A stretch of DNA of 64,000 nucleotides. Origin: Candidatus Uhrbacteria bacterium. Its GTDB lineage: Bacteria > Patescibacteriota > Patescibacteriia > UBA9934 > GWF2-40-263. The translations under genes and the position numbers were made by a program. Shown one piece after another: positions 23,075 through 61,900 of this stretch. The notes below the pieces were generated by a model. It did no database searches. It saw nothing but the letters and a program-made list of their open reading frames with translations, and was not told the DNA's origin. The stretch is from the NCBI GenBank assembly GCA_023246355.1, contig JAHFIQ010000001.1:81887-145886 (forward strand). Direction: 5' to 3'. The stretch's first letter is position 1; every line of letters begins with the position of its first letter.

Positions 23075-26000
23075 TCAATCCGGCGTAACAGCAATCGTGC
23101 CGTCAAAGTTGATCCAAGGATTCGCTGTTCCTGCTCCGCCATAGTCCACACACGAACTTGAATCTCCTTCAGAGGGACAGCTCTCAATATTACACTCTCT
23201 AACACTCGTCCCATCCTCCGTCTCCCCTGAAAAACAATTATCCGTACCATCCGCACCCGCGTCACAAAACCCAGTGCACCAGCCCCAGTTGTCAGTCACA
23301 CTCACGCGAGGCTGGAAGACACAGGCACCGCTTGAATCCAAGCACGGCGAGTTGAGTAAACGGGTTGTGTCTGTATCGTCATACTCACAGGTTCGAGAGG
23401 TGAGCAGCGCCGTATCGCCGTCTGTGCAAATGTAGTCGTGAGCGAAGTTGATGTAGGACGTGGAGCAGGCTGTGCTCGATGTTCCAAATTCAACTGGATC
23501 GCTACCACAAATTTCTTGCTCTGACGTCGCATTCAACCCGCGATGGTTTTGATAGAAGTTGTCTTCTGCTGTGGAGCCACTTTGAGAACCCGTCGGCCAG
23601 TGCGCGCCAAGACCCGTAGGTTGGACCCCACCAAAATCATCTCCCCAGTCGATCACAATCCGACGAATCGGCATCTGGTTAGAATTCGCGTAGGTAAAGA
23701 AGCTCACGTTGGCATGATACGTCCCCTCTCCTTCCAAATCTCCCCCGTCGACCTCTCCGATATTGAACTTCCCTTCCGTGTCCTCGATACATTCAGTACC
23801 CACACAATCTCCCACCGACACCACCGTCGGCGGCTCAGGTTCATTATCATCGTCGCCCACGGAACGCGTGTCCCAGAGCCAAGGTTCGTCTGCCGCTAGA
23901 TCTTCATATGCAACAGGGGTCCAACTCCCAAATTGCTCTCCTGTATTAAATCCAGTTGTCAACGCGCCATCAGGAACTTCTTGAGCTGCCACACCTTCAT
24001 ACCCGTCTTCAAATTGAATCATGCCATAGATGCGACCAAACAATTGTGATAGTCGGCTAATCGCATCATCAATTGTGTCGTTCTCTGTAAAAGTCGTGTA
24101 TCCACTCGTTGGAACAACGGAATCAAACGTCATCGAAAAATCACGGAAACTGCGAGCGTCCTCACCAGCCGTACTGGTAAAACTGCTAGCAGAGGCATCG
24201 CAGGCCGTTGTTGTTTCAACAGGTGGAATCTGGTAGTCGTCGTTTCCTTCTGAACACATCACAGGAGTGTGAGCCCAAGGGTCAGGATTGTCATCAGTTG
24301 TAAATTCCACTGCCAATTCTTCAGGATCAGTCGCCACACCATATGGAGAAAGAAGCGTGTCATAGGTATACCCAAAGTGGGCATCATCTCCACCTGGATC
24401 AGCAATAGAAAACGCTGCTGAAGAACTCTCCCACAGTCGATCGGTCCAAGCCGCATTGTAGGAATCGAACGGGTAGTCATCTTCATTTGGTTCTGTGGCA
24501 GAAACTTGAACAAGGGTCGAACAAGCTGGATATCGGGTAAACACCCATGCTGCCAGAGAGTCGACTCCAGTAATTCCATCAGCATAAGAATAGTAATATC
24601 CACAGCTCACCAAATTATTTCCATAACAGGTCGTTGGATCTTCTGTGGTTGGAATACCGTCCTCCAACAAATCATAAGGTGACGTAAACTCGTCAAGACT
24701 ATCACCTAAGACACCTCGTGCTGCACAATCGTCATACAATTCAAATGCATTATCAAATCTCCATGGCGCCAACACATATACTTCTACATTGAGACCAGGG
24801 TACCAGTGGTCACCTACATCACTTGTGTTAACCGAATAATCTACCGTGTAATAATTCCCAGGAGACAAGCAGCGATCTCCATCATCACCCTCTGCGTCAG
24901 TTGCTGTCTTGTAAGAAAATTTCGGTACACAGAAATAGGGACAATCATCAGTCGTAATAGACGCTCCACAATACTGACCGCTTGCTCCACCATTTAGATC
25001 ATGATACGTGGAGTTATCTTGACCTCCACACCCTGTCATCACGGCAAAATAACCTTCTGGACAAAACACAGAGGAAATACAGTCATCGTTTGTAGAATTT
25101 GAGGATGGATCATTCGCCGTTGCCAACCAAACATCCCATGTCGTCTCTGCATCATCTTGCTCAGCTTCTGTTCCTTCGTGATCGTAATACAATCCACCAT
25201 CACAATAGTCATCGACTTCCTCTGCACATAAAATGTTCGATGTCCAAACACTATACGCCGCCTCAATATCCGCACAGTAATACGTCTCCTGTGGCGTGTA
25301 GCCGGCGGAGGTGTATTTGCCGTACAAATCGGTCGAGCCGGCGAGTTGGTCCACCGGGAGCCAGCTGAGACAGGCTTGGTCTTCTGTGTCAGAAGAACCG
25401 AGCGTCTGGATCGAGGTATCTTTTTCAATGCAGTAGCCTTCCCAGCCGTACATCGTGGAAACACCGCTCAACGCCGAGCAGGTGCCCACTTGCGTAGTAC
25501 CAATGGAACAATCATCGTCATCAAGACACGGAAGTCCTGGAACAGGTCCACCTGTACAAATGCCATCTGGAACCTCGCCACTCTGGCTGAACGTATCTGC
25601 CCCTGTGCCTGCCTCATAGTAACGGTATCCGGAACCTTCTCCGTATTCCACTTTATCGTAGCTACAATCACAGTCCACTGGCTCGCCGTATAAATCTAAT
25701 CCACACACCGCAGAATCTTGGAACCCTCCCACATAGGCATAGGGCAGAGAGTACCAAGAAGCTGGCAGACCTCCTGATCCGGAAGCGCTAAACGTCGCAT
25801 CCGTTGGAGACGTGCCATCAGCCGTGCTGTATCTGAAGGTCTTCCAGTCATCAACGACCGACGTTGGATACGGCGAATCGATCTCTGGATACCCTCGGCA
25901 GCCCATCTCACGGCCAGAGGTCACTTCGCCGCCAGAAATCGCCAAAGTATCGGCATACCCATCGCCGTTGTCGTCCTTGATGTCGGACAGACATCGGTTG

Positions 26001-29000
26001 TTGAAGCACTCACCGGTGGTTGAGGTGGAAGCTGGAACACAGGTGGCACCATACGCATACGCGCTACAACTTGTATCTGCATCGCAAGCTTCAGTGGCAA
26101 CAAAATCATTTTCAGACGTGAACTTATCTACACAGACAAACTGCACAGGATCGCAGAAATACGTATGAAGCCCAATGTCGGTCGTGTTTGTTGTGCAATC
26201 GGAATTGGTACCATCACTGGAATTATCATTATCGGGATTACACGAACAGTCGGAATTAACACAATTCGTTGTTCCACTCGCCTGACAATATCCCACCACG
26301 CAGGCCTCAGAACCTGAACAGTCATCATCGGATGCACACGCGCTGCCAGAGTCCTCGCACATTCCAATAGAACACGATCCTCCATTGCCATCACCAGACT
26401 CTGTCGCATCACATGGTCCGGCGTTATAGACGAGACGATAGTCCGTGTCGGAATTATTTGCGCAAGAGTAGTAGCAATATCCAGAATCGGAACAGATACC
26501 AGAGTACGAGGCACAGTCAGCATTCGTCGTACACGCTGTCGTGCTAACTCCGCAATCTTCGTACGTATTACAGTACGTAGGAAGTCCAGCATCGTTGGTA
26601 AGTTCGGTCGACGTCGTTTCCATGCACACCGTCGTTGGCTCCAAATTAAACTGCGTATACAAATCCGTCGGGAGCTGATTGGGGATGGTGCCGCCTGACC
26701 ACTCCTCGCCAAACCAATTCACGTCACGTGCTGAATACTGATAGGCACCCAAAATTTCTGGATCGCTCGAATCCCACTGTGTACATGTTGAGGTATCACC
26801 CTGGTTGGTTCCCTCCACGCACAGATTGATGGAATCACAAATGGTGTCGTAGGTTGAAGACGTTGTGTTCCAACTGGTCTTGGATGATTCACATGCCAGC
26901 CACGCTGAACACGAGCGATCACGATTCACTTTGATGACTTCGTTCGCATCGTCATCAAGAGCATATGTCGCGGACACGTCCTCACAGGTTGCGGTCACGT
27001 CTTCTCCCAAATTGGTTGTAAGCACAGGGCAGTCGTCATCCACCAAACAAGAACGTTCATAAACTTGTGTGGAAGAAACTTCTGTGGCAGAAGGCGTGTC
27101 AATCGAATCTCCATCTTCGACTTCATACGAACAGCGTCGTGCGCACAAATCTACGGTCTCGCTTGTGAGTCCCAGCGCATCTGCATCTGAGGAGGAAACC
27201 GTAAACTCACCACCCTCGTCCAACTCACAGTCGATCGGATCCTGAAGGGAATTTTGCTCTTCGCCAAAGAAGACATCCGCATGCATGGACACCACATACG
27301 AGGCCCCGGCGTTATAGCTCAACTCCGAGTCGGTTGTGTTATTGAATACGGCGCAGCCAAACTTCTGGCTCACTTGACCATCACAGCGCTGGGTATCGGT
27401 AAGCGTGTCTTCGCTGAGCAAATCATCATTGGTGAAGTAGTACGACTCTCCGTCCTCACCCCCGCCGCCAGCCGTGTCCACCACATCCACAAACTCGGTA
27501 CACAGATCATACGCGTCTTCACAGGCCGCCACCCAACCGTCATAGTCATCGTCACCATTGGCCCACACACCAAATTCATTGCCATTGATGAGGTAGGAAT
27601 CATCCTCGTCTGGATCAAAGTCGCCGCTTGCATCACTGTCAGTCCAATCGCACGGCTCCGTTGTGCCAGATCTAAACCAGCCTGAGTACTCCTGATTGCC
27701 GATCGTAACCGAGTCTTGATACTCACAGGTCTTGTCCAGTGGATCCTTAAAATAGAAATTCCCGTCTTGGGTGGAATCCCATTCTTCACAGAATAATTCT
27801 TCGTCACTGCACAGCAGCGTGTCGTAATCTTCAGGCAGATTCAGGTAATACACGGACTCAAAACTATCGACCTCTGACTGATCTTGATTGAACGTTGGCA
27901 AACCGAGCTCCTCACAACCCATGGCTTCCTCATCACATTCATAGGTGTCGTCGGCAACGAGATACACAGGAGCATCCGTGGGAACAATCACTGTTTCGGG
28001 CCCAAAGACAACCGCGTAGTGAACTGTTGAGCTCACAGCTTCAGAGGGCAATGGTTCCTCCAAAACCGTATCCGCATCAAATGTACAGTACGAAGAACCC
28101 GAAGTAATCGTGCAGTACTCAACTCCGTCGATCTCGCAGGTCGTGTTCGCGCCGACGGTTTCTGGCTCATCAGAAAAGTCCGTGTCAGAGGAATACATGC
28201 ACCTGGCGTTGTAGACCTGCTGGTAACTCGAATCAGAATTCCCTGTATCAAAGAATCCTTCACATCCAACGACATCCTCGGAACACAAATCTGAGAACTG
28301 ATACAGATCCGCGTCCACGCCGTTCTGATCCGTGTACGCTTCACAGCCAAGATAATACTGATCAGACTCTACTCCGTCAGCCGTCGCATCACAGGTTGAT
28401 GGCACCACCCACGAGTCTTTGATGAGCGTGATGTCTTCTTCGACCTGTTTGAGCGAGATGTTGTCCACGTAGGCTTCCGCAGCTGAGGCCACTCTAAATC
28501 GCAGGACCGCGTTCTCGTCAAAATCTGCGTAATCACTTGTGTCCAGTGGACCCAGGCTGAATAGCTGCCAGGAGCCCGTGAGTTCCACAGGTGTTAAATC
28601 TGAGGCAGAAGAAATGGTCGCACTTGGGTTTGACAGATCATGCGTGTCGCCCGATCCGCCCTCCTCCTCAAACGTGACATACATGTTCCCGGATCCCTTC
28701 GCCCAGAAGTCCACGACAAACGTTTTGCCACCCACAAGATCAGACGTGAGCGCTCCACAACTTTCCTCACTATCCTCAATCGTACAGTCTTCATCGGCTG
28801 AACCATCGGCATCTACATCATTTTCAACGTCACAGCCAGAGTCGCCTATCGTTCCTCCATTTCCTGTACAGGTTGTTGATGTTCCTGCTGCATCTCCTGC
28901 CTCATCATACGTTTCTGTTGTAGTTGCACTGTCCAAATAAATCTGGATCGTCTCAAACCCAGCCAAGCCACCGGTTGCAGAAACATAGAGTGAATGACCG

Positions 29001-32000
29001 TCCGTCGCGATGGATTCATTACTCACAGACAAACTTGAAGTCGAGCTGCTTGTTTCTGAAATCACAAAATCATCGTACGTTCCATCTTCAAACGTCTCGT
29101 CCAAAATGGTCGTAGCATTTCGTCCTGTGCCGCCGGTATATTCTCGACACCCGCTTTGTTCAGCCGGACACTCGGTGCTTTCATCGGCCAACACGTAGTA
29201 GCGGCAGAAGCCTTGGTCCGTCCAATAGCCACCCGAGTCTTCACAGTCGGTTTCTGTTGACTCGTCTTTGCGATACGGCGCGCAGTCGTTGGAAATCGAA
29301 ATCGTGTCTGGATATTCCCGGTAATGAATGTTGCCTTCGGTATCGAAAAACTCTCGGCAGTCGGGATTATCAAAGATGTCATCGTGCTCGTCACAGTCTG
29401 CGTTGTCCCAGACGTCCGCTGACATATTCCCTGCAAACGAATCGTTACAGGAGACGTCGTTTTCTGATGTCATGGTGACATGCGTACAAGGCGCCAAGTC
29501 TGGCGAGTCTTCCACATAGCCAGAGCCCGAGAATGTTCCGGAGCTGGTCACGACATTTGATTCAAGCAAATACCACGTCTGCAACTGATAGCCTTCGTTG
29601 TCAGAACCTTCCCAGGTGAAAAACGTCGCTGGCGTGGTAAATTTGTCACTGCTATCTGCAATATCCTCACTCAAACAAAATCGCAGTGAAGAATAATTCT
29701 CAGTCCCTTCTCCACCTGCATCCACGGCATCAAGGTTGGTGTAGGAATCGCACCCAATGTATTGCGATGAACACGACGTGGCGCGATCAGCAATAAAGTA
29801 GAGCGGAAATTCCTCCGAGTCATAATCCGTGGCTTCCTGTTTGTACGTGGTGTAGCCCACACATTCCTCAGGACACTCGTCCAGTTCCGAGATAATCGCT
29901 GGGACATCTGGATCTCCATCTTCAGGTGTGTAGAGATTGCACCCAACTTCTTGGGCGCTGCAGACCTGAGCGTAATCATCACACTCAGAAGGATCCGTAT
30001 CAGCATCTCCTGTGCATCCAAGGTAATCTGGCGCGACTTGATAATAGACTTCGGTAGCGCTGGTGTTGTAATCCTCAGTAAAGTTGCTCACGTCTTCTCC
30101 AAGCTCCAGTTGCACGGCATCAAGCAAAATTTCATCTGAGTCAAATTTCAACAGTCCTTGCGCTACGTCTTCTGGCGTCGTAAATGTACAATCAAACTGC
30201 GTCCACTCTCCAGAAGTAAATTGTGAACTATCAGTTGGATCAGCTGTGATGACATACGATGAGGTTCCTTGCACACAGTCACCTCCATACGAAGTTCCTG
30301 CGACGGAGACGGCTTCACCAAATTCATCGTACAAATACAAGTAGGCATACGTTTCAGCCGCCGCAGTGTTGTCCGCACGAGCGGAAAAACTCAATGTGTA
30401 AAAGTTGTTCGGTGAGAGCGAAACGTATTGCTCAAGAATGCTCGCGTCTGTGCTGAAACTGAAACTTCCAGATACAGGACCATCATCTTCCTGCATCGTC
30501 TGAGCAGACGTTGCTGCGGATCCGTTGGTCCAGTTGTCTGGAACATCGTCCTCGTCTTCGTCAGATTCAAAACTCGGGTTCTGGATTTGGTTAAACACCA
30601 AATCATCGTTAAATTCATTCAACCGTGTACAGCCTATATCATCCTCGGAACATTCCTCTGCTTCGTTAGTGAAATAGATCCGATCGTTGTAGGCGTAGGA
30701 CGTGTTTGAATAAATCTCTCCTGAGTCAGACGTATAGCTGTAGCTCACAGGCTCCTCAGAATCTCCTGTGCTCAGTTGATACTTCCAAGCTGAATCGTGA
30801 GTGGCTGTGGTGTACGTTTCCCCGTCAGGAAGAAACTCATAGGTATCGTCACTGTCGTCATCAGCGGTGCCTGCATCTTCATAATGCTTCTGCGTGGCAT
30901 ACCACCGGCAACCGGCATTGTTGGAATCGCATACTGAATAATCCACACTGCTTACGCGATAAGCTGCCTTGTCTCCGGTAAACGTATTTTCAAACGAAAG
31001 ACATGTTGAATATTCCTCAGGACATTCATCCCCGCGAAAGCGCCAAGTATTTTTTTCCCTCACGCAATACCCGTAACCGTCGGAACAATTGCCGTCGTTG
31101 TCCTCCCCGATACAGCTTGGTGCATCAACGCATGAACTGGCACGGCCTGGCGTCTGAGCCCCGATGCGAATTTCTCCGTTGGCAATCGCACGACATTGAG
31201 TCTCAGGATATTTCAAAACCCAGTTTGGATCGATCAGATGGCACCACTCATCCGCACCAGAGCTTGAATTGGCCGGACCGATTGTCCCGTCTTCCGTACA
31301 ATCATCAAATCCATCGACAATATCTTGCAAGGTCGCTGGAGATCCACTGTCATTGCGAAGTGCGGCCAGCTCCCACCCAACAGGAATCACACGAGCTTTC
31401 CTGAGCTTCACCAAGTTTCCATAGCAATACCCATACGTATAGCAGTAAGGATCTTGGTTGGCTGAGGTGTCTTCAGGAGAAATGAGCGGCCAGTCGCCGT
31501 TCAATAACCCCTCATCAATCGCCTCCTGCACAGTCAGTGCGGCAACAGCGCCACTGGACCCACGACTGACGGCTGCCATAAAATTGGTGTCCATGACACA
31601 ATTATTGAGACCTCGGTTACTCACATTCCCTGACACACAGACGACAAATTCTCCTAATGCATTGTATTGTGTGGTGGCAATCGGGGAGGACGAAAAAATA
31701 CTCGCAAACCGCGCTTGAGCGGTTTCTTTACTTCCCTCAGCGGTAGCTTCAACATCAAATGGATCGATGTCCAAAGAAACATCAAATAATCCAGTATAAA
31801 TTCGGGAAAACAAAGTTGAGAGCAGCGTGTTGGTAAACGTCGAGGCTGTTGTCAGCGCTAAGCCTCCGATAAGATCGCCCGCACCAACCAGGTCTCCAAC
31901 CTTTACTTTCTCTTGATCAGAAGCCGATAATTTTTTGTGAAAATCTTCAGTCACCGTCGCAGAAGGTGTTTTTACATCCCCCGTAATAAAATCTGTCACC

Positions 32001-32803
32001 GGCTTATATTCATCCTTGGTGATGCCCATGAGCTCAAGCAATTTGGCTTCCCGCACCTTTCCATCAATGGCAATGTTGGTTCGAAGTGCTGCACTGATTT
32101 CGTTTTGACCTGGTTTCAAGGACTCGGCGAATTTGCTCAACACAGCTTCTTGAATAGCCTCTGGATCGGTCACGGTTTGATAGATGTTCGTAAAAAATGA
32201 CCCCCAGGCTTTTCCGACTTCCAAAATATCACATCGAGGCGCTGAAGGTTGATATTTTTGTTTGATCCCAATCGCCAGAGCAAGCTGAAGAATCCCGTCT
32301 GGGGAACAGAGATTGAATTTGTATCCAAGGTCTCCTGTAAGATCCGACATCGTTGCCACAGCCTCGCCCGCGGCCTCAAGTCCCAATTGACCAAAGGCTT
32401 CTGCCGGGGTCTTGTTGTAAAAAAGCGAACCCTCGCCAGGACCTCCTGAGGCAACGGCCACGGCCGCTTCATAAGCGAGACGATCAAGGACAAAACGAGA
32501 AAGATTCATGAGCGATTGGACAAGCGCCACACGAAAAGCCGGCGAGGCAATTTTTTTTCCGATGGTATCCAACACCTCGCCGATCGCATCCGGAGGACAG
32601 GTACTGGGAACAGCAGCTGTTTTTAAACAGACGGCTCGTGAACCCTTCACCACAACCTCGGCAGTTGTTTGGGCAGGGTTGTCTTGGGCTTGCACTCCGC
32701 GAGCCACAAAAATGCCCAAACTCACAAAACTAAACACAAACACCATTAAGAATCCTGCTGTGATCAATCGTTTTGTGTGATGGGATGCGTTGGTCATACG
32801 CAA
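23075..32803 (-). CDS. Giant (3242 aa) secreted/surface protein, Cys-, D/E-, S/T- and G-rich
   Basis: Single uninterrupted ORF with an N-terminal signal/TM (LITAGFLMVFVFSFVSLGIFVARG). Many Cys-rich segments. NPSFESD-type motifs suggest carbohydrate-binding-like modules. The antisense ORFs are artefacts. Confidence 0.8.
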   Translation of the reverse strand: MRMTNASHHTKRLITAGFLMVFVFSFVSLGIFVARGVQAQDNPAQTTAEVVVKGSRAVCLKTAAVPSTCPPDAIGEVLDTIGKKIASPAFRVALVQSLMNLSRFVLDRLAYEAAVAVASGGPGEGSLFYNKTPAEAFGQLGLEAAGEAVATMSDLTGDLGYKFNLCSPDGILQLALAIGIKQKYQPSAPRCDILEVGKAWGSFFTNIYQTVTDPEAIQEAVLSKFAESLKPGQNEISAALRTNIAIDGKVREAKLLELMGITKDEYKPVTDFITGDVKTPSATVTEDFHKKLSASDQEKVKVGDLVGAGDLIGGLALTTASTFTNTLLSTLFSRIYTGLFDVSLDIDPFDVEATAEGSKETAQARFASIFSSSPIATTQYNALGEFVVCVSGNVSNRGLNNCVMDTNFMAAVSRGSSGAVAALTVQEAIDEGLLNGDWPLISPEDTSANQDPYCYTYGYCYGNLVKLRKARVIPVGWELAALRNDSGSPATLQDIVDGFDDCTEDGTIGPANSSSGADEWCHLIDPNWVLKYPETQCRAIANGEIRIGAQTPGRASSCVDAPSCIGEDNDGNCSDGYGYCVREKNTWRFRGDECPEEYSTCLSFENTFTGDKAAYRVSSVDYSVCDSNNAGCRWYATQKHYEDAGTADDDSDDTYEFLPDGETYTTATHDSAWKYQLSTGDSEEPVSYSYTSDSGEIYSNTSYAYNDRIYFTNEAEECSEDDIGCTRLNEFNDDLVFNQIQNPSFESDEDEDDVPDNWTNGSAATSAQTMQEDDGPVSGSFSFSTDASILEQYVSLSPNNFYTLSFSARADNTAAAETYAYLYLYDEFGEAVSVAGTSYGGDCVQGTSSYVITADPTDSSQFTSGEWTQFDCTFTTPEDVAQGLLKFDSDEILLDAVQLELGEDVSNFTEDYNTSATEVYYQVAPDYLGCTGDADTDPSECDDYAQVCSAQEVGCNLYTPEDGDPDVPAIISELDECPEECVGYTTYKQEATDYDSEEFPLYFIADRATSCSSQYIGCDSYTNLDAVDAGGEGTENYSSLRFCLSEDIADSSDKFTTPATFFTWEGSDNEGYQLQTWYLLESNVVTSSGTFSGSGYVEDSPDLAPCTHVTMTSENDVSCNDSFAGNMSADVWDNADCDEHDDIFDNPDCREFFDTEGNIHYREYPDTISISNDCAPYRKDESTETDCEDSGGYWTDQGFCRYYVLADESTECPAEQSGCREYTGGTGRNATTILDETFEDGTYDDFVISETSSSTSSLSVSNESIATDGHSLYVSATGGLAGFETIQIYLDSATTTETYDEAGDAAGTSTTCTGNGGTIGDSGCDVENDVDADGSADEDCTIEDSEESCGALTSDLVGGKTFVVDFWAKGSGNMYVTFEEEGGSGDTHDLSNPSATISSASDLTPVELTGSWQLFSLGPLDTSDYADFDENAVLRFRVASAAEAYVDNISLKQVEEDITLIKDSWVVPSTCDATADGVESDQYYLGCEAYTDQNGVDADLYQFSDLCSEDVVGCEGFFDTGNSDSSYQQVYNARCMYSSDTDFSDEPETVGANTTCEIDGVEYCTITSGSSYCTFDADTVLEEPLPSEAVSSTVHYAVVFGPETVIVPTDAPVYLVADDTYECDEEAMGCEELGLPTFNQDQSEVDSFESVYYLNLPEDYDTLLCSDEELFCEEWDSTQDGNFYFKDPLDKTCEYQDSVTIGNQEYSGWFRSGTTEPCDWTDSDASGDFDPDEDDSYLINGNEFGVWANGDDDYDGWVAACEDAYDLCTEFVDVVDTAGGGGEDGESYYFTNDDLLSEDTLTDTQRCDGQVSQKFGCAVFNNTTDSELSYNAGASYVVSMHADVFFGEEQNSLQDPIDCELDEGGEFTVSSSDADALGLTSETVDLCARRCSYEVEDGDSIDTPSATEVSSTQVYERSCLVDDDCPVLTTNLGEDVTATCEDVSATYALDDDANEVIKVNRDRSCSAWLACESSKTSWNTTSSTYDTICDSINLCVEGTNQGDTSTCTQWDSSDPEILGAYQYSARDVNWFGEEWSGGTIPNQLPTDLYTQFNLEPTTVCMETTSTELTNDAGLPTYCNTYEDCGVSTTACTTNADCASYSGICSDSGYCYYSCANNSDTDYRLVYNAGPCDATESGDGNGGSCSIGMCEDSGSACASDDDCSGSEACVVGYCQASGTTNCVNSDCSCNPDNDNSSDGTNSDCTTNTTDIGLHTYFCDPVQFVCVDKFTSENDFVATEACDADTSCSAYAYGATCVPASTSTTGECFNNRCLSDIKDDNGDGYADTLAISGGEVTSGREMGCRGYPEIDSPYPTSVVDDWKTFRYSTADGTSPTDATFSASGSGGLPASWYSLPYAYVGGFQDSAVCGLDLYGEPVDCDCSYDKVEYGEGSGYRYYEAGTGADTFSQSGEVPDGICTGGPVPGLPCLDDDDCSIGTTQVGTCSALSGVSTMYGWEGYCIEKDTSIQTLGSSDTEDQACLSWLPVDQLAGSTDLYGKYTSAGYTPQETYYCADIEAAYSVWTSNILCAEEVDDYCDGGLYYDHEGTEAEQDDAETTWDVWLATANDPSSNSTNDDCISSVFCPEGYFAVMTGCGGQDNSTYHDLNGGASGQYCGASITTDDCPYFCVPKFSYKTATDAEGDDGDRCLSPGNYYTVDYSVNTSDVGDHWYPGLNVEVYVLAPWRFDNAFELYDDCAARGVLGDSLDEFTSPYDLLEDGIPTTEDPTTCYGNNLVSCGYYYSYADGITGVDSLAAWVFTRYPACSTLVQVSATEPNEDDYPFDSYNAAWTDRLWESSSAAFSIADPGGDDAHFGYTYDTLLSPYGVATDPEELAVEFTTDDNPDPWAHTPVMCSEGNDDYQIPPVETTTACDASASSFTSTAGEDARSFRDFSMTFDSVVPTSGYTTFTENDTIDDAISRLSQLFGRIYGMIQFEDGYEGVAAQEVPDGALTTGFNTGEQFGSWTPVAYEDLAADEPWLWDTRSVGDDDNEPEPPTVVSVGDCVGTECIEDTEGKFNIGEVDGGDLEGEGTYHANVSFFTYANSNQMPIRRIVIDWGDDFGGVQPTGLGAHWPTGSQSGSTAEDNFYQNHRGLNATSEQEICGSDPVEFGTSSTACSTSYINFAHDYICTDGDTALLTSRTCEYDDTDTTRLLNSPCLDSSGACVFQPRVSVTDNWGWCTGFCDAGADGTDNCFSGETEDGTSVRECNIESCPSEGDSSSCVDYGGAGTANPWINFDGTIAVTPD

Positions 32804-33503: not shown

Positions 33504-33632
33504 GAGACCTCAGCAAAAGTCGCGATCTTGCAACTTACGGGGCCCCGCCACCACCTCAACGTAGGATTTACCTACGTCTCGGCGGCTGGCTTCCCCGTGC
33601 GTTGCAATCTCATCGACTTTTTCAGAGGTCTC
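33504..33632. repeat. Long-hairpin intergenic repeat element, copy 3
   Basis: gagacctcagcaaaagtcgcgatc ... cacggggccccgccaccacctcaacgtag ... ctcggcggctggcttccccgt ... gcaatctcatcgactttttcagaggtctc. Confidence 0.75.
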
Positions 33633-33664: not shown

Positions 33665-34492
33665 TTACCTAGGCGTTTTATCTTCCACAGGAGCCAAGAT
33701 GTGGGTAAGTGTCCTCCAGTTTTCTACCGTGAGGGATTCGGCGCGAATTTTGGGATCTAATTTCAGTGACTCAAGCGCGACTTTGACCTGTAGCGATGAC
33801 AAATGCAGATGCGCTGAGAGATTATGATGGAGCTGCTTGCGGCGTGAGGAAAAGCCGGCTTTGGCGATGGAGATGATTGATTCAAGAGGTGGTGAGGTGG
33901 AAAAGGTAGATGAGGTGGATGAGGTAGAACATGAAAGGTCGAGACGAACAATTGCGGAATCAATCTTTGGAATAGGCCGAAACGCGCCAGCAGGAACATT
34001 CGCGATTTTTTCACAGTGAGCGTAGAGCTGGCAGACAACGGAGAGCAGACTCATGTGTGGTGGCAGTGCCGTGATTCTGTCGGCTACTTCTTTCTGAACC
34101 ATCAGAACCATGCGGGATGGTTTTGGATCGGTTGTCAGGAATTTTTTCAAGAGATCAGAAGTGATGTTGTAGGGAATATTTGCAATGAGTTTGTAGCCGC
34201 AGGCTTCAGCCTGTGTTCCGTGAAGTGAAAAAGACAAAGCATCACCGTGGATCAGAGTAATCTTGGTGCCAAAACGGTCGTGTAAAGCATCAACGAGATC
34301 TTGATCAGCCTCGATCGCCGTCACTCTGGCACCTGCATCGACCAGTGCTTGAGTCAGAACCCCCGTTCCTGGACCAATCTCAAGCACGTGCTCGCCAGGG
34401 TGAATCTCAGCGGCCACGATTATTTTGGCAACGACTGTCTCATCCACCAGCCAATTTTGCCCAAAAGATTTTTTCGCACGCGGCAATCTCAT
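33665..34492 (-). CDS. rsmA: 16S rRNA (adenine1518/1519-N6)-dimethyltransferase RsmA/KsgA
   Basis: FGQNWLVDETVV, SAM-binding motif LEIGPGTGVLT, NIPYNITS. Contains the in-frame insert CSTSSTSSTFSTS encoded by the GAGGTGGA mini-repeat. Confidence 0.85.
   Translation of the reverse strand: MRLPRAKKSFGQNWLVDETVVAKIIVAAEIHPGEHVLEIGPGTGVLTQALVDAGARVTAIEADQDLVDALHDRFGTKITLIHGDALSFSLHGTQAEACGYKLIANIPYNITSDLLKKFLTTDPKPSRMVLMVQKEVADRITALPPHMSLLSVVCQLYAHCEKIANVPAGAFRPIPKIDSAIVRLDLSCSTSSTSSTFSTSPPLESIISIAKAGFSSRRKQLHHNLSAHLHLSSLQVKVALESLKLDPKIRAESLTVENWRTLTHILAPVEDKTPR
33886..33940. repeat. GAGGTGGA-type mini-repeat inserted in-frame in rsmA
   Basis: gaggtggtgaggtggaaaaggtagatgaggtggatgaggtagaacatgaaagg, near-identical to the intergenic copy at 14851-14900. 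Confidence 0.65.
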
Positions 34493-37165: not shown

Positions 37166-37222
37166 ACACGAGCGTTCAGTGACAACGTGTCGAGAAGCAA
37201 CACGTTGTCACTAAATACGTTA

Positions 37223-37349
37223 GAGGCCTCTGCAAAACTCGATGAGATTGCGATGCGCGGGGAAGCCAGCCTCCGAGACGTAGTGAAAACTACGTTGAGG
37301 AGGTGGCGGGGCCCCGCAAGTCGCAAGATCGCGAGTTTTGCAGAGGTCC
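37223..37349. repeat. Long-hairpin intergenic repeat element, copy 4 (inverted orientation)
   Basis: gaggcctctgcaaaactcgatgagattgcg ... gaggtggcggggccccgcaagtcgcaagatcgcgagttttgcagaggtcc. Confidence 0.75.
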
Positions 37350-37351
37350 CG

Positions 37352-37687
37352 TTACAATTTTATCTGTTTAGCAAACACTCCCAGCACCGGCATGTTCCAC
37401 AGACGCCCTTGCAGGGCGTTGATCATCCCCAAGATCATGAGGATGATGAGCACAATAGAACCAAGCATCCAGACAATCTGTCCGAGCACGGGAATGACAT
37501 TGCCCACCCACAGGATGATCCAGGCAACGAGCAGCACGAGTCCTTGCTTGCCATGATGCTGGGCAAACGCAGAGTCTTTTTTTAGAAGCAATGGAACCAA
37601 ACACAGGATTCCCAGGTACCCGATCGCGGCAAGGAAACGATCGTCTGGGAGATGGACCTGTGGAGGAACGTGATCTCGTTGAGTCAT
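37352..37687 (-). CDS. Small membrane protein (DUF4870-like topology)
   Basis: Likely start MTQRDHVPP. Three or four TM helices. The N-terminal extension in the ORF track is a read-through of the repeat element. Confidence 0.45.
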   Translation of the reverse strand: MTQRDHVPPQVHLPDDRFLAAIGYLGILCLVPLLLKKDSAFAQHHGKQGLVLLVAWIILWVGNVIPVLGQIVWMLGSIVLIILMILGMINALQGRLWNMPVLGVFAKQIKL

Positions 37688-37841
37688 ACTCACATGATGA
37701 TAACAGAAAATGAAAGACGAGGGCAGACCCTCGTCTTTCTGTAACAAACCTTGAGTGGCACGGCGTCTGACCTTGATCGGCAGCGCAGCGTAAGCGAGCA
37801 CCGGCAAGGTCTGCGCCGTGACGAGGCTCAAGGTTTGTGAA

Positions 37842-39506
<1,665 letters not shown>

Positions 39507-44083: not shown

Positions 44084-44260
44084 AAAATATTCTTAGGAAA
44101 GGATTTAAAACGATGAGATGCGAAGGGCTGGAGGAAGCAACAGCCGAGGCGTACTGAAACGTACGGTGAGGCTGTTGTGAACCGAAGCCCGAGCAGATCG
44201 CGTTTTAAATCCTTTCAATAAAGAAACCCGTCTAGCGACAGGTTTCAGGATGTCCATAAT

Positions 44261-44629
44261 CTACCAAAACCGCTCAGGGATGTCAATGTCTTCGATGTGA
44301 GTAAACTGAGGCTCTCCTTGATCATACTCAATGGCAACCACATCAATGCGCCAAGGCACCTCACCTGCTTTTGATTGATCAAGGTATTCCTGTGCCGTTC
44401 TCACCAAGTGCCCGATCTTGGTGACGGTCACGGAATCTTCCGGATCGGCTAAATCACTGTGTCGACTTTTCACCTCAACAAAAACGATCTCTTCGCCATC
44501 CGCACAAATGAGATCGATTTCTCCGTAGGAATTTTTGTACTGCCGCTGACTCACTTTGTACCCTTTGTCTACCAAAAACTTCGCAGCAGCTTCCTCTCCC
44601 TGATTCCCAAATATCCTCCGAGCATCCAT
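44261..44629 (-). CDS. yraN: YraN-family (UPF0102) putative endonuclease
   Basis: Motif GEIDLICADGEEIVFVEVKSR. Likely start MDARRIFG. The ORF track extends to 44692. Confidence 0.7.
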   Translation of the reverse strand: MDARRIFGNQGEEAAAKFLVDKGYKVSQRQYKNSYGEIDLICADGEEIVFVEVKSRHSDLADPEDSVTVTKIGHLVRTAQEYLDQSKAGEVPWRIDVVAIEYDQGEPQFTHIEDIDIPERFW

Positions 44630-44630
44630 A

Positions 44631-45041
44631 CTATTTTTTTCTGCGACCTGGGAGGTATTTTTGATTGGCATGACGCTGCGCTTCACGCTCACGCATTCCT
44701 GGCACGGTCCATTTCACATAACGAAAAATCAGAAAGCTCCAAAAAAGAAATCCAGCAATCCACACCAAGTACCAGAAGCGCGCGCCAAACAGTCGAATCT
44801 CTTCAAAGCTGAAAAAGAACAGGAGCACGCCCAAAATTCCCATCACCACGAGCAAGGTAGAAATGTTGTGGCCCACTTCACGCATGAATCGATCTGAGCC
44901 GCGTCTGTCAGCGACGAGATGACCAACAATACCCAGTACAAAAACGACGACAAAAATGACGAAGGTAATCGTGCCAAGAAGTCCTCCAACCTCGGGTGGA
45001 TTCATGGTGAGCCAGTAGGTGGGCTGTAAAAATTCAGACAT
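44631..45041 (-). CDS. Hypothetical membrane protein
   Basis: 136 aa with 3-4 TM helices and an ATG start. Confidence 0.4.
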   Translation of the reverse strand: MSEFLQPTYWLTMNPPEVGGLLGTITFVIFVVVFVLGIVGHLVADRRGSDRFMREVGHNISTLLVVMGILGVLLFFFSFEEIRLFGARFWYLVWIAGFLFWSFLIFRYVKWTVPGMREREAQRHANQKYLPGRRKK

Positions 45042-45302: not shown

Positions 45303-45379
45303 TGGTGGGCGCTGAGGGGATCGAACCCCCGACCTTCTCGGTGTAAACGAGACGCTCTAACCAGCTGAGCTAAGCGCCC
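45303..45379 (-). tRNA. tRNA-Val (anticodon TAC)
   Basis: GGGCGCTTAGCTCAGCTGGTTAGAGC D arm, anticodon stem TCTCG/CGAGA with loop TTTACAC, T loop TTCGATC, CCA encoded. Confidence 0.7.
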
Positions 45380-45383
45380 TCTT

Positions 45384-45511
45384 GAGACTGTTGCAAAACT
45401 CGCGATCTTGCGTTTCACGGGGCCCCGCCACCACCTCATCGTAGCTTTCGCTACGCCTCGGCGGCTGGCTTCCCCGTTCAACGCAATCTCATCGAGTTTT
45501 GCAACAGTCTC
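45384..45511. repeat. Long-hairpin intergenic repeat element, copy 5 (abuts tRNA-Val)
   Basis: Terminal stems gagactgttgcaaaactcg / cgagttttgcaacagtctc are perfect and carry compensatory changes relative to copy 1. Core cgcgatcttgcgtttcacggggccccgccaccacctcatcgtag. Confidence 0.75.
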
Positions 45512-46052: not shown

Positions 46053-46144
46053 GGAAGACCTCTCTGAGCGCTGACAACATAGATTGAATAACCTTGCACG
46101 TCAAGAACCAAACAAAAAACGCTCTCATGAGAGAACATTTTTTG

Positions 46145-46230
46145 TGGTGCGCGGGAGAGGACTCGAACCTCCACGCCCTTGCGAGCGCTACCACCTCAAG
46201 GTAGTGCGTCTACCATTTCGCCACCCGCGC
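46145..46230 (-). tRNA. tRNA-Leu (anticodon GAG), type II
   Basis: GCGCGGGTGGCGAAATGGTAGACGC, anticodon stem CTACC/GGTAG with loop TTGAGGT, long variable arm, T loop TTCGAGT, CCA encoded. Confidence 0.7.
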
Positions 46231-47012: not shown

Positions 47013-47203
47013 GTGCTTGATGACGAACGAAAGGACATGCTTTGGACAAAAACCGTCACGGAAGGCCGGACTCTCCCTCCGACAGGCTCAGAGCATAATC
47101 ACTTGCGGCCTGAGTGACGAGGGGCGCCGAGACGACCGTCGGGTATCACTCAGGGTGGGCGACCCCGTGTTTTTGGACAAGGCTTGTCCTTTCGTTCGTT
47201 GTT
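47013..47203. repeat. ~190-bp element with ~37-bp terminal inverted repeats (structured ncRNA or MITE-like)
   Basis: gacgaacgaaaggacatgctttggacaaaaaccgtcacgg pairs with ccccgtgtttttggacaaggcttgtcctttcgttcgt. The GC-rich interior has an internal hairpin cctgagtga/tcactcagg. Confidence 0.5.
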
Positions 47204-47576
47204 ATTCTTCTTCACTGTTGGCAGATCCATCCATGCTCAGTCGCCCATTAACTTGAGCTCCAGCGGCGACCGAAATACGCGCTGTGGCCACATCCCCCTT
47301 CACCCGAGAGGTAGCCAAGAGCTCGAGCATCTCGTGAACCGTGACATTCCCCTGTACCTCCCCGGCAATCACCGCGCTCTTCGCTTTCACGTCTGCCTTG
47401 ATACGTGCGGTTTCTCCGATGCGTAAAAACTTTTCCGTCTCCACTGTGCCGGAAACCTCCCCATCGATCACCACATCGCCATCTGAACGGAAATCTCCCT
47501 CCACCTTGACCCCCTGTGCAATAATCGTCTCCTGCGTATTCGTGCTTGGCATAGCGCTGTGTTTTTTATCCCTAAA
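47202..47576 (-). CDS. Bactofilin
   Basis: Repetitive beta-helix motifs (VEGDFRSDGDVVIDGEVSGTV ... IAGEVQGNVTV ... VKGDV). Likely start MFRDKK, with GGAGGA upstream. Confidence 0.7.
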   Translation of the reverse strand, partial: FRDKKHSAMPSTNTQETIIAQGVKVEGDFRSDGDVVIDGEVSGTVETEKFLRIGETARIKADVKAKSAVIAGEVQGNVTVHEMLELLATSRVKGDVATARISVAAGAQVNGRLSMDGSANSEEE

Positions 47577-47628
47577 CATAGAGTGATTCTTAGTCCTCCG
47601 GATCTTAACAGTCTGAGCTTCCGTCTGT

Positions 47629-49335
47629 CTACATCTCTTCCACGGTCTCAATCCCAAGCAGTGCTAAGCCATTTCTGAGCACCTGGGACACGGCTCTGAG
47701 CAACGCCACCCTTTCCTGTATTTGATCCTCACGTGCTTGAAGCACGGGAACGTGTTCGTAAAAATGTGAGAACGACTTGGCAAGGTTAAAGAGGTACTGA
47801 GCCAAAATGGCTGGCTGGAGTTCCTGTGACGATCGGAAAAGGACTTCAGGAAATTGTGCGATCGCAAACACAAGCGCGTGACTGTGACGATCGTCAAGGG
47901 TTTTGGCACTCGGCTTCCCTTTCATCTTGGGGGCTTTCTTCAGAATACTTTGGATGCGAGCAACGGTGTAGAGAAGATACGGACCGGTACACCCATCAAA
48001 CGACAACGACTCGTCTAGATCAAATACAATTTTTTTCCCAACGTCTTGTTTCAACATGGAAAAACGCATGCCAGCAAACGCAATCGCACGAACGACCTCT
48101 TTGGTGTGTTCCTTGGTCCAATCCGTATGGCGGCTCTGAGTTTCTTGACGCGCTTTCTCGATCATCTCGTCTCGCAGTGTTTCGTAGCGCACCACGTTCC
48201 CCTTTCGGGCGGCCATCGCTCCGTCTGAAAGCGTGACAAATTCGTAGGAAAGATGGGTCAGCTCACGCTCAAATTTCATCCGTTTGAGCGTCGCAAACAA
48301 TTGTTGAAGTGCGTGACTTTGACGGGCATCAACCACGTAAATCGATCGAGCTGAGTGATAATCTTTTTCTTTTTCAAGAGCAAGGGCGAGATCTTTGGCG
48401 TTGTACAACAAGGTCCCATCGCTTTTGATGAGCAGGTTCACGCCCAGTTTCTCATTTTCTAAATCTACAATCCATGCACCTTGCGACTGCACCACCACAC
48501 CGTCCTTAATAAGCCCATCAATAATTTTTTTGGTTTTCTTGATGAGCTGGCTTTCAAAGTACCAATGATCAAGCGTGAGCCCGAGTTCATCGTACACCTG
48601 TTTCAAATAGTCGAGTGACCACTTGCGTGTGACTTTCCACACCGCGACTTCACTTCCTTTTTGATTTTCCAAATGCTTGAAGACTTCCGTGACCTGTTCT
48701 TTCAACGAAGGATTTACTTCGAGCGCCTGGTTCGCTTCCACATACACCTCGCGCAAAAAATCGATGCGCTTGTCTTTGGGTGTTTTGTCCCAATCTTCCT
48801 TCGCCGCGATCGCCCAAACCGACTGTGCGACATGCAGTCCCAAGTCGTTGATGTAGGCCACAGGAATGACGTCGTACCCACAGGCTTTGAGCAGATTCAC
48901 GGCCGCCTGTCCGACAAACAAATTCCGCAAGTGACCAACATGGACATCTTTATGAGAGTTGAGGTTGGCGAACTCAACCATCACCCGTTTCTCTTTTCCC
49001 ACATCCGATGTCCCAAAGGTGTCTCTCATCTCTGAAACTTCCTCAAGAATCGCCTTGCCAAATTCAGCATCGGCCAACACAAAATTCACATACGGCCCAT
49101 GAGCTTTCGCGCTGGCAATATGCCCTTTGGGACCAATCTTTACAGCGATTTCTGTGGCGATTTCTGCTGGGTTGCGTTTAAGCTTTTTCCCTAATTCAAA
49201 ACACGGAAACGCCACGTCTCCCATCGCGGGGTCTGGAGGCGATTGAAGTTCTTCAATCACTGGAACAAAACCGTGACCCACAGCCTTCTTGATCGCCTGA
49301 AGAATATCTTGCTTGGCTTGTTGGATTACGTACAT
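47629..49335 (-). CDS. argS: Arginyl-tRNA synthetase
   Basis: Class I HIGH-like motif SHKDVHVGHLRN and anticodon-binding domain. 568 aa. Overlaps the valS stop by 10 nt. Confidence 0.9.
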   Translation of the reverse strand: MYVIQQAKQDILQAIKKAVGHGFVPVIEELQSPPDPAMGDVAFPCFELGKKLKRNPAEIATEIAVKIGPKGHIASAKAHGPYVNFVLADAEFGKAILEEVSEMRDTFGTSDVGKEKRVMVEFANLNSHKDVHVGHLRNLFVGQAAVNLLKACGYDVIPVAYINDLGLHVAQSVWAIAAKEDWDKTPKDKRIDFLREVYVEANQALEVNPSLKEQVTEVFKHLENQKGSEVAVWKVTRKWSLDYLKQVYDELGLTLDHWYFESQLIKKTKKIIDGLIKDGVVVQSQGAWIVDLENEKLGVNLLIKSDGTLLYNAKDLALALEKEKDYHSARSIYVVDARQSHALQQLFATLKRMKFERELTHLSYEFVTLSDGAMAARKGNVVRYETLRDEMIEKARQETQSRHTDWTKEHTKEVVRAIAFAGMRFSMLKQDVGKKIVFDLDESLSFDGCTGPYLLYTVARIQSILKKAPKMKGKPSAKTLDDRHSHALVFAIAQFPEVLFRSSQELQPAILAQYLFNLAKSFSHFYEHVPVLQAREDQIQERVALLRAVSQVLRNGLALLGIETVEEM

Positions 49336-58662: not shown

Positions 58663-58748
58663 AGTGAAAATAGCTAAATACGCTGCTCATCTTACCTGAA
58701 AGTAAGAAAAAGCAACAAGGCTTAGGTTGTGGGTAACATGGGGCTAAT

Positions 58749-58878
58749 CGGGACTGTTCCCAAATGAGCGATCTTGGCTTTCACGGGGCCCCGCGACCAC
58801 CTCAATGTAGGATTTACCTACATCTCGGCGGCTCGCTTCCCCGTTCAAGCCAATCTCATCTCATTTGGGAACAGTCCC
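58749..58878. repeat. Long-hairpin intergenic repeat element, copy 6
   Basis: Perfect terminal stems gggactgttcccaaatgag / ctcatttgggaacagtccc, with compensatory changes relative to the other copies. Core cacggggccccgcgaccacctcaatgtag. Confidence 0.75.
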
Positions 58879-58885
58879 AATCAAA

Positions 58886-58924: not shown

Positions 58925-61900
58925 TTACAGAGCGGCCTCAGCGGCTGGCTCCTCAGCAGGAGCTTCCTCAGAAGAGGTTGCCTCTTCCTCGGTTGCCTCA
59001 GGAGCTGGAGCCGACACCCCGTTCACGTCCGTCACTGATACGGCTGTGCCTTCTGAGTTGTCGTCCGAAACGGTCACTTGCGCATCTTCCACACCGATCG
59101 CAATCCAGTTGAACTCGACTTGAGCCTCTGAATTTGGTCGGTTGATGGTGAAGCCTGTTGTGTCCTCGTCTGAGATCCACGCGCCGTCAGCAGAATCTGA
59201 GTTGGAGCGTGAGGAGAAGGTCACAATTGGCAAGAAGTCGTATTCGGTTTCAAACGTCACACGCACCGAGCTCTTTCCAGAGGCGAGTCTCACGCGTCCG
59301 GCCATATCCTGAGATCCATAGAGATGCTCGGCGATGGTGACAGAACCGGAGAAGTTGCCATCAGACACTGAGACGCTCGAGCTGTCGGAAGAAGAGTCAG
59401 AGATGCTGACACCAGAGTCTGGTTGGTACCAAGTATTCACGACCTGGACCATAACTTGACCTTCACTGCCACTAAAGCTTGAGAGGGCCATACCGATCAC
59501 GCGTCCAGCCTCCGTGGCCTTCATACCTTTTCCTGCAGTCGATGATGTCGTGATGAAGTCGCCTACAGCAATCGATCCGTTTTCGTCTGTCACGTTCACT
59601 GGGACACGTCCCACAAGGGCAATTGGCATTGGATTGTCACTGTCAGCGATGTTGTACCCAGCGGATGTTCCGTCTTCATAGTTATCAGACACGATACCGG
59701 ATACCGGACCCTGATAGGTCTCAGATGACTTAACGAGCTGTACGATCGAGTCTCCTTGTTTTGTGGTAACCGATTGCGATCCAGGAACCACGATGTCTCC
59801 ATACGTGACCCCTTCGGCAACCGGGTACATTTCAGCAAAGTCAGCTTGACCGGCGTTAGAACAGTCCACAACGGTGGAGTTATTCAGAGCAATTCCATCT
59901 CCACCACCTGTATTTGCACACAGACGCTGCGTACTTGTGTTCGCTGGTGCGTCAATGATGAGAAAATCATTAATTTGCACTGTTGCGTGTGTAACCGAGT
60001 CAATGACAGGTCCAGCAGCACCGTCTAGGTCAAAGCGTACATCCGTTGTTGTTCCGCCAGTACCCTGGAATGAAAGCTCTGCGTTGATAGAATTTGAGAT
60101 GTATTCAGCGTTTTGGAACTCAATGTCCTCGTCCCAAACGTCTCCATTGTCAATCTTGATGGCCTTTGTGGTGTCAGTGTCATCTGTTCCAGTAAGAGTC
60201 AGGTAAAGCCCTGTGGCGACGTCTCCTGAGCCCGTTCCATTTGTGGCTAAGCTTATAGAGATTCCAGAGTTCGTCACGTTTGCACCGTCTCCAATCGTGT
60301 AGGACAGGTTCAGAGCATCTACTCCACGCGTGATCGAGCTTCCTGTGACACTTAAGTTTATGGCGTCTGTGGTGATGGTACCTGTTGAGCTAACATCGAG
60401 GACCTTCGATCCAGTGGCGTTCGTCTTGATGTCGAAGATGTCACCAGTAGAATTTGCATTGCTTACGTTCAAGTCAATCATGTTGGCTGTGAAGACACCA
60501 GTACCAGTTGCAGCCAGGAGCCAACCTGTGTTGGGAGCGTCAGCGGCTGAGAGACCAGCATCAAGAGCTCCAGCAGCATTCACGACAATGGCTTGGACGT
60601 CATCGTTGGCAGAGTCACCGATGTTGAGGTCGATGATGTTGGTGGTGGAGTTACCTGTTCCTGTATCGACATCGAAGAGGTTACCTGTGAAGGCAGAGTT
60701 GTTGGAAGACTTCACAGAGAAGGCCTCACCAGTGGAAGCACCAGAGAAGTCGACATCGATAATGTTTCCAGAACCTGTGCTAGAAGAGTTCAAGTCAATC
60801 ATGTTGGCGGTGAAGACACCAGTACCAGTTGCAGCCAGAAGCCAACCAGTGTTGGCAGCGTCAGCGGCTGAGAGACCAGCGTCCAGAGCACCATCCGCGT
60901 TAATCACAATCGCTTGAACATCATCGTTGGCGGAATCTTCAATGAACAGGTCCACGAGGTTTGCTGTGGCATTTCCTGTACCAGTATCCATGTCAATGAT
61001 ATTGCCTGTGTAGGCATTGTTGGTAGAGGAGTCAAAGCTGAAGCCCTTACCAGTTACGCTTGCAGTGAAGTCGATATCAATGACGTCACCCGAGGCAGCG
61101 CTATTGACATTCAAGTCAATCATGTTTGCCGTGAAGGAACCAGTACCTGTGGCAGCAATGAGCCAACCAGTGTTAGCAGCGTTTGCAGCAGAGAGACCAG
61201 CGTCCAGAGCTCCAGCAGCATTCACGACAATGGCTTGGACGTCATCGTTGGCAGAGTCACCGATGTTCAGATCGATGATGTTGGTGGTGGAGTTTCCTGT
61301 TCCTGTATCGACATCGAAGAGGTTACCTGTGAAGGCAGAGTTGTTGGAAGACTTCACAGAGAAGGCCTCACCAGTGGAAGCACCAGAGAAGTCGACATCG
61401 ATAATGTTTCCAGAACCTGTGCTAGAAGAGTTCAAGTCAATCATGTTGGCGGTGAAGACACCAGTACCAGTTGCAGCCAGGAGCCAACCCGTGTTGGCAG
61501 CGTCAGCAGCTGAGAGACCAGCGTCCAGAGCTCCAGCAGCGTTTATCACAATCGCTTGAACGTCATCGTTAGCGGAATCCTCGATGTTGAGGTCGATGAG
61601 GTTTGAGGTAGAGTTCCCCGTTCCTGTATCAACGTCGATGATGTTGCCTGTGTAGGCAGAGTCTAGCGTGGAGTCAACCTTGATGGCGTTACCAACGACT
61701 GCAGCAGCAAGATCGATATCAAAGACGTTTTCATCGGTGATGTTTTGAACGTTGATATCCATCATTGGAGCAGAAGCCGTCGCGTCAGCCTGGTCATCCA
61801 ATCGGAACAGGGACGTGGAAGAACGGTCAGCATCAGAATCGATGTAGAAGAGATGGCCGGTAGCAGCCTGAGCATCGTTATCAATGAAGATCCCATGACC

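Follow-up and report, generated by a model that had tools for sequence, protein, structure and literature searches.

Genomes of Candidatus Uhrbacteria (Patescibacteria/CPR) carry a hairpin element that is non-coding, present in many copies, restricted to this lineage and inserted with target duplications. Seven copies of it lie in the 64-kb stretch of DNA analysed here (the window), where they make up ~1.4% of the sequence. We propose that it represents a family of MITE-type transposable elements, ~128 bp long, non-coding and non-autonomous, and give this reading a probability of about 0.72, because copies are present or absent at orthologous junctions, because they are flanked by target-site duplications (TSDs) and because one of them sits in frame within a Ca-ATPase gene. 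The element is shorter than ~500 bp and has no coding capacity, it has terminal inverted repeats and TSDs, and its dispersed copies show presence/absence differences, as MITEs do. We read it as selfish or tolerated repeat DNA rather than as a novel RNA gene or terminator, and its hosts belong to a group (CPR/Patescibacteria) whose genomes are tiny, densely packed and usually described as poor in mobile DNA.

The original prediction listed six copies in both orientations; repeat finding joined all six, on either strand and within 1-4 nt of the positions given, and they align across ~130 nt with a mean column identity of 76%. An exact pattern drawn from the invariant columns (GCGATCTT N8 CGGG N40-65 CCCG N8 AATCTCATC) matches exactly these six sites, with 0 matches expected from shuffles. 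The six thus all exist, but the count was one too low: a covariance model built from 89 copies gives 45 bits to a seventh, divergent copy (copy 7 in Table 1), whose hairpin has a z of -12.6. That the copies always lie 3′ of a minus-strand stop is true (at 2-76 nt) but says little, since all genes between 3.2 and 52 kb are minus-strand genes. Their neighbours are housekeeping genes, as judged by Pfam on 19 window proteins.

Table 1. Copies of the hairpin element in the window, with refined ends, and the tRNA gene beside copy 5; the strand given for each copy is the better-folding 'GA' strand.
Feature	Position	Strand	TSD	Sequence features	Context
Copy 1	21495-21624	+	CATG (21491-21494, 21625-21628)	outer stem GAGACCTCTGC	13 nt past stop of ORF 21638-22081(-); GA strand antisense to flanking genes
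Copy 2	22902-23029	-	TATT on + strand (22898-22901, 23030-23033)		46 nt past stop of 3242-aa ORF
Copy 3	33504-33632	-	no clear TSD	TGTTATAAT box ~12 nt upstream on GA strand	32 nt past stop of ksgA-like 33665-34492(-)
Copy 4	37223-37350	+	GTTA (37219-37222, 37351-37354)		GA 3′ end abuts stop of DUF4870 ORF 37352-37879(-); release-factor gene downstream
Copy 5 (hairpin of the original prediction)	45384-45511	-	none	128 bases	4 nt upstream of tRNA-Val(tac) 5′ end, same sense as the tRNA; terminator (45584-45564) and promoter-like TTGATT-17-TAAGCT both upstream of the copy
Copy 6	58750-58878	-	AATC on + strand (58746-58749, 58879-58882)	outer stem GGGACTGTTCCC	46 nt past stop of 1659-aa repeat protein ORF
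Copy 7	44096-44216	+	none	divergent, yet CGAUGAGAU / AGAUCGCG kept	between terminator of UPF0102 gene 44261-44692(-) and nusA start (44083)
tRNA-Val(tac)	45303-45379	-			copy 5 within its 5′ leader; one of 12 tRNA-leader copies across species

Several other features of the window were recorded alongside these copies. The 1659-aa ORF (58925-63904; 321-nt tandem repeats in 7-8 units, 75-97% identical) and the 3242-aa ORF (23075-32803) show no informative Pfam domain, and in both cases a copy of the element follows the stop codon at a distance of 46 nt. Between a DAGK-like gene and ORF 47202-47657 lies a GC-rich intergenic stretch of 177 nt (47023-47199) with a 31-nt terminal inverted repeat; it has no Rfam match even at E<=1, is absent from the loci of other species, and may be an unannotated structured RNA (of 6S/SRP-like size) or another palindromic element. 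Two similar 40-nt stretches (5283-5322 and 46130-46169, 83% identical) lie over the 3′ ends of tRNA-Arg and tRNA-Leu, and these also share a downstream terminator-like hairpin (ACAAAAAATGTTCTCT...).

A pattern scan of one genome per GTDB species found at least 102 loci in 21 assemblies of related groundwater bacteria, from some twenty species with a GC content of 39-59%; one assembly, JACPHU01, carries at least 24 loci. The 8-kb blocks around copies (102 loci, 800 kb in all) are denoted by L numbers below. Among the matches listed, nearly all are labelled Candidatus Uhrbacteria or Patescibacteria, and the window's own genome is absent, its best relative being ~80% identical (L008). The element also occurs on contigs labelled Lentisphaerae or 'uncultured Gammaproteobacteria' (L002, L021, L047, L052, L074, L079 and L097); where comparable, these share gene order with Uhrbacteria contigs, at 75-88% identity, and because of this synteny the labels are probably wrong, through errors of binning or naming. 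Scanning IMG/VR with the family pattern gave 0 matches in viral contigs, and there is therefore no sign of a phage vector. At the gathering threshold Rfam 15 matched only tRNAs and has no family for the element, and at E<=10 it returned only generic long-hairpin miRNA models, far below threshold. Full-text literature searches found no description of the element, or of MITEs or palindromic repeats in CPR bacteria or Uhrbacteria; as far as could be checked, the family is undescribed.

Each window copy folds as a single, unbranched hairpin of ~128 nt (z from -10 to -16, with 0/200 shuffles folding as well), so that the long hairpin first proposed is borne out. The element ranges from 109 to 181 bp, with a mode of 129-130 bp, and contains no conserved ORF, the reading frames through copies being incidental. 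Its terminal inverted repeats are formed by an outer stem of 18-19 bp, paired in nearly all of 113 copies, whose sequence varies by subfamily (GAGACCTCTGCAAAACTCG, GGGACTGTTCCCAAATGAG, CTTGAATTACGAAACTCG, AAAATTTTTCAAAAAATCG and more; the stems GAGACCTCTGC.., GGGACTGTTCC.. and CTTGAATTACG.. are among the forms seen) and is paired within each copy. The claim that complementarity of the terminal stems is perfect in every copy was too strong: the copies at 33504 and 22902 carry 2-3 mismatches or wobbles each. Within the outer stem lies an invariant, asymmetric inner core, on the GA strand 5′-CG-A-UGA-GA-UU paired with AA-GA-UCG-CG-3′, which has a bulged A, a U.G wobble (88/89 copies) and tandem G.A pairs; part of this invariance is imposed by the pattern used for harvesting copies, and the core is kept also in model-found copies outside that pattern. 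A second tandem G.A often occurs seven pairs further inside the hairpin. The apical stem is variable and co-varying, with at least three or four types that are combined mosaic-fashion with the outer stems, and the extreme termini are the least conserved part, yet paired, with no common terminal dinucleotide. We considered a K-turn as a description of the core and rejected it on inspection, the G.A pairs lying 3 bp away from the 1-nt bulge.

Compensatory change, which had been proposed for the terminal stems, is confirmed by the 89 copies: over 34 lower-stem pairs 96.9% of cells are paired, against 79% when shuffled and ~40% with slid partners, double-sided changes are seen in 23/34 of the pairs, and many positions show four pair types. 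One copy (L019, 2798-2930) has as its core 5′ arm CGCGATCTT, the perfect complement of the 3′ arm, in place of CGATGAGATT; this looks like templated conversion within the hairpin, and shows how easily a copy can lose the asymmetric core, which nearly all copies nevertheless retain.

Evidence for mobility came from presence/absence differences at orthologous intergenic regions in relatives and from target-site duplications in the flanks of copies, both of which the original prediction had put forward as checks. By synteny, copy 7 is missing at the orthologous nusA-upstream junction in L081 and L050, and neither L008 nor L081 has the tRNA-Val copy. Conversely, two ORFs that in the window are separated by only CAT-AGG-TTA have a copy between them in L008, and L034 has one in a 23-nt spacer that is without it in the window (10834-10856). 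Filled against empty orthologous sites, together with TSDs and the restriction to Uhrbacteria-type genomes, support the suggestion of a lineage-specific, MITE/REP-like mobile hairpin. At the nusA-upstream junction, where the window has copy 7, L008 (4060-4152) has an unrelated imperfect palindrome of ~90 nt; this junction looks like a hotspot for the insertion of palindromes.

With element ends set at 18 pairs outside the core, and the expectation taken from mismatched left and right flanks, TSDs of 4 bp were observed 27 times (4.4 expected), of 5 bp 10 times (1.0 expected) and of 7 bp 13 times (1.3 expected). Their length tracks the class of the outer stem, GAGACC/GGGAC ends having duplications of 4-5 bp and CTTGAATTACG ends of 7-8 bp. 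No TSD is present in 47/113 copies (almost all tRNA-leader copies among them); in the window, copies 3, 5 and 7 have none. The flanks share no conserved target motif or tetranucleotide, only AT-richness. One assembly, JAUYIW, has about ten near-identical copies with intact 7-bp TSDs, which indicates a recent burst. Among near-identical strains of the window's genome there was no insertion polymorphism, spacing being identical in 15 and 13 contigs.

Only 1/113 copies lies in a clearly real gene. This copy (L038, 5964-6092, in ORF 4255-7056) is in frame within the P-domain region of a P-type Ca-ATPase, to which it adds ~44 residues; LLVV is duplicated, all Pfam domains are present, and the best PDB homologue aligns on both sides with a gap of ~46 residues at the element. 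Derivatives were also found. In L034 (5092-5115) the sequence GAGACCTCTGCAATGCAGAGGTCT, which is the outer stems set head to head, stands 2 nt after a TAA stop at an operon junction and is probably the remnant of an internal deletion; others are a 75-nt version, a copy with a nested hairpin and the L019 copy with one arm converted to the other. Such outer-stem-only, shortened, nested and converted forms are derivatives typical of decaying repeats.

A transposase, or a full-length parent with matching ends, was not found in the 102 loci or in the window, where Pfam on the 19 proteins gave no transposase, and a blastn search of PLSDB for a plasmid-borne IS gave only chance matches. The original prediction had held that TSDs with an associated transposase would make this a plain MITE; the duplications are there, but the enzyme was not found in the loci searched. 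Near the copies we saw no Y1 transposase, integrase or reverse transcriptase and no multi-copy ORFs, and there were no solo half-cores in the loci searched. Outer-stem sequences outside the known copies led to further copies, one chance match in L075 and one unrelated hairpin element in L047. This last (3886-4045) is a different, 160-nt hairpin, whose 16-bp outer stems (AGACCTTTTTCAAAAT) are common to the copies in L056 and L063 and whose differing interior includes a 30-codon ORF; the same stems around another interior suggest that ends and interiors are exchangeable modules.

The two strands of the element fold differently. The GA strand folds better in 112/113 copies (mean -82 against -71 kcal/mol) and has 348 G.U pairs to the 78 of the other strand (~4.5x); the gap between strands is 10-18 kcal/mol with RNA parameters and 2-5 kcal/mol with DNA parameters. 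So strong an asymmetry suggests that a single-stranded form of one strand matters. Selection at the RNA level in the locally transcribed orientation was considered and rejected, the asymmetry being equal in copies whose host transcribes the GA strand and in those whose host transcribes its complement. Since it is independent of the direction of host transcription, it appears to be inherited from the propagating form rather than imposed by local mRNA.

Copies are found in both orientations relative to transcription and in all four gene configurations, and their placement follows clear rules. When a stop was scored from -12 to +6 nt, for ORFs of >=80 codons reading into the element, the GA-strand 3′ end was at the stop codon in 46 copies and the other end in 8 (p = 1.4e-7), and in the commonest arrangement the first one or two bases of the element complete the stop codon. 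Twelve copies lie 1-5 nt upstream of a mature tRNA 5′ end, before tRNAs of ten different anticodons; 12/12 are GA-sense, they stand downstream of sigma70-like promoters, and they form their own apical subtype, unlike dispersed copies. Others are in operon junctions, 8-20 nt before the next start. Enrichment of promoters upstream of the GA strand is weak (28 against 19 copies) and is accounted for by the AT-rich flanks. The young JAUYIW copies show neither the stop-codon rule nor the orientation bias, which points to selection after insertion and not to the mechanism of insertion; these orientation rules may have arisen because the more perfect hairpin, the GA-sense one, would terminate transcription or cause RNase III cleavage when it lies in an operon.

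Taking these observations together, we propose that insertion would proceed by staggered cuts from one or more transposases supplied in trans, possibly more than one because there are two duplication lengths, with the conserved core as the likely recognition site. Selection would act on the GA-strand hairpin in single-stranded form (RNA or ssDNA), or on source copies that are highly transcribed, and not on host mRNA, because the GA strand has its excess of wobble pairs whatever the direction of host transcription. Copies would survive where they are harmless in a compact genome, which is to say at stop codons, in short tRNA leaders and once in a loop of the Ca-ATPase, and contact with stop codons and tRNA 5′ ends may largely reflect the very small permissible windows that such a genome offers. 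There they would be co-transcribed with their neighbours as long RNA hairpins.

Several observations sit awkwardly with a MITE. Besides the missing transposase or parent in the loci searched and in plasmid IS, the 47 of 113 copies without TSDs and the lack of insertion polymorphism among near-identical strains, the termini vary more than any other part and have no terminal dinucleotide in common, which is unusual for the ends of a DDE transposase, and the strong orientation rules are not explained by random insertion alone. A rather unlikely account, which would explain the free-but-paired termini, the constant better-folding strand and the orientation-specific placement, is that the element propagates via a single-stranded GA-strand hairpin (RNA or ssDNA), with the core recognised and cutting at a fixed distance from it, and with no conventional end-binding DDE transposase; the source copies would then be those GA-sense copies that have no TSD and lie in tRNA leaders, where tRNA promoters would express them and RNase P would trim them. 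If true, CPR bacteria would have a mobilisation mechanism of a new kind. Quite unlikely, in our judgement, is an account in which a ssDNA hairpin is moved by an HUH/Y1 enzyme (as in REP/REPIN-RAYT and IS200/IS605-PATE systems), or by a structure-specific recombinase to which the bulged core would be what attC is to IntI. The whole-length hairpin, its conserved extrahelical or mismatched bases, the strict strand asymmetry, the termini that vary freely provided they pair, and the orientation-specific placement beside neighbouring features would all be expected of it. However, HUH/Y1 and tyrosine-recombinase insertions are not known to make target-site duplications, and here these are statistically clear in two length classes; nor is there a conserved flanking target tetranucleotide, a GTAG-type REP head, or a Y1 transposase or integrase near copies in the 8-kb loci. 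Very improbable is a retro-mobile, SINE-like element, for which GA-sense RNA from master copies in tRNA leaders would be reverse-transcribed and inserted at nicks with variable TSDs. CPR genomes are rich in reverse transcriptases, and such a route could give RNA-type asymmetry in all copies regardless of local transcription, TSD-less copies in tRNA leaders behind strong promoters (with 3′ ends that RNase P would set) and two TSD length classes. Against it, daughters end exactly at the hairpin base, without the 10-20 nt of leader or 1-5 nt of pre-tRNA expected of such an RNA; TSD length follows outer-stem class, as expected for end-specific transposases; the apical subtype of the tRNA-leader copies does not match that of dispersed copies; and no reverse transcriptase lies near copies.

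Tentatively, the element could be primarily a functional RNA module, of which the GA-sense hairpin would be freed from tRNA leaders by RNase P as a discrete small RNA. At stop codons, the hairpin of opposite sense would serve between cistrons or at 3′ ends (for example as an exonuclease block, or by preserving translational coupling through the looping out of 130 nt), and mobility would be only the module's means of spread; we regard this as possible, though not likely. Its core is RNA-typical, with the near-constant U.G wobble, tandem G.A and bulged A; RNA energies give a far greater asymmetry than DNA energies; the tRNA-leader copies share one sense behind their promoters; and one particular end abuts the stop codon. 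In one orthologous pair, L007/L097, the copies are 94% identical and two compensatory double changes are among their differences, against ~75% identity in the coding flanks. This suggests purifying selection on at least some copies, i.e. a host-level role, which speaks against a MITE alone, and a host-level RNA role for some copies is possible. Other orthologous junctions, however, carry different subtypes (L003/L064, L021/L090) or no copy, all four gene configurations are occupied, the asymmetry is there whichever strand is transcribed by the host, and the recently amplified JAUYIW copies are without the stop-codon rule or orientation bias. The idea of a free-standing structured ncRNA gene, which the original prediction had entertained as the primary nature of the hairpin, does not agree with copies in both orientations to transcription or with the lack of an Rfam match. 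Scarcely tenable is its other idea, a terminator family, taken here as a lineage-specific family of intrinsic (rho-independent) terminators, to which copies that are intergenic, GC-rich, stably folded and downstream of stop codons in the window might have pointed. No T-run follows the hairpin and the terminator scan reports no copy; copies occur in tRNA leaders between promoter and tRNA, in operon junctions shortly before the next start, and once inside an ORF; and the reading fails because canonical terminators lie directly beside copies 5 and 7. A mobile element of the MITE type thus remains our preferred reading.

Whatever moves it, the element matters in practice. It gives rise to spurious ORFs and to breaks in assemblies, several contigs having a copy at their end, and stop codons, tRNA leaders and even a P-type ATPase can be misannotated because of it. 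Its subfamilies, TSDs, asymmetric core and orientation rules form a natural data set on what is selected in hairpin repeats, whether DNA ends, ssDNA or RNA, and on the tolerance of insertions at the stop codons and tRNA leaders of minimal genomes. It would become more interesting still if the strand-specific core were the handle of an unconventional mobilisation mechanism.

Among known systems, integron attC sites, REP/REPIN sequences and IS200/IS605 derivatives were rejected on their defining features. Like the Uhrbacteria element, attC sites are hairpins (57-141 nt), variable in sequence and conserved in structure, in which extrahelical bases set the active strand and which begin right after the stop of the preceding gene; unlike them, the element has no GTTRRRY/RYYYAAC box (its ends are GAGACC...GGTCTC and similar) and has TSDs, and its neighbours are syntenic housekeeping genes, not cassettes, with no integrase nearby. 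With REP/REPIN-RAYT systems it shares intergenic hairpins, long persistence in a lineage, compensatory change and strand-specific structure. REPINs, however, are paired REPs of ~25 nt with a conserved GTAG head and no TSD, whereas the element is one continuous 128-nt hairpin that has TSDs and no conserved terminal tetranucleotide, with no RAYT in the 8-kb loci. PATEs derived from IS200/IS605 have subterminal hairpins, no TIR or TSD, and a fixed 4-5-nt target 5′ of the left end; here there are TIRs and TSDs and no fixed flanking motif.

The nearer likenesses are to palindromic elements and MITEs of other bacteria. Rickettsia palindromic elements (RPEs) are palindromes of ~100-150 bp which, like the copy in the L038 ATPase, lie in frame inside genes without destroying them, but they are mostly ancient and immobile, in contrast to a family with 1/113 copies in a clearly real gene and recent bursts with intact TSDs. 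The ERIC/IRU and YPAL-type MITEs of enterobacteria are imperfect palindromes of ~127 bp with a conserved central or inner part, which lie near or overlap stop codons and have orientation-dependent effects on mRNA; palindrome size, conserved inner part and stop-codon proximity are shared with our element, and sequence, TSD and phylum differ, as do the systematically better folding of one strand and the strict tRNA-leader class seen here. The Correia elements of Neisseria are non-coding, ~100-155 bp long with TIRs, intergenic, present in hundreds of copies and co-transcribed as long RNA hairpins. We know of no cognate transposase for Correia (CREE/NEMIS) or ERIC elements, and the element described here likewise is a small, non-coding, intergenic TIR hairpin for which no transposase was found among the loci searched. 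Correia elements have conserved 26-bp TIRs, a TA duplication and an IHF site; compared by description only, the Uhrbacteria element differs from them in its variable termini, its TSDs of 4-5 or 7-8 bp, its conserved asymmetric inner core and its CPR host.
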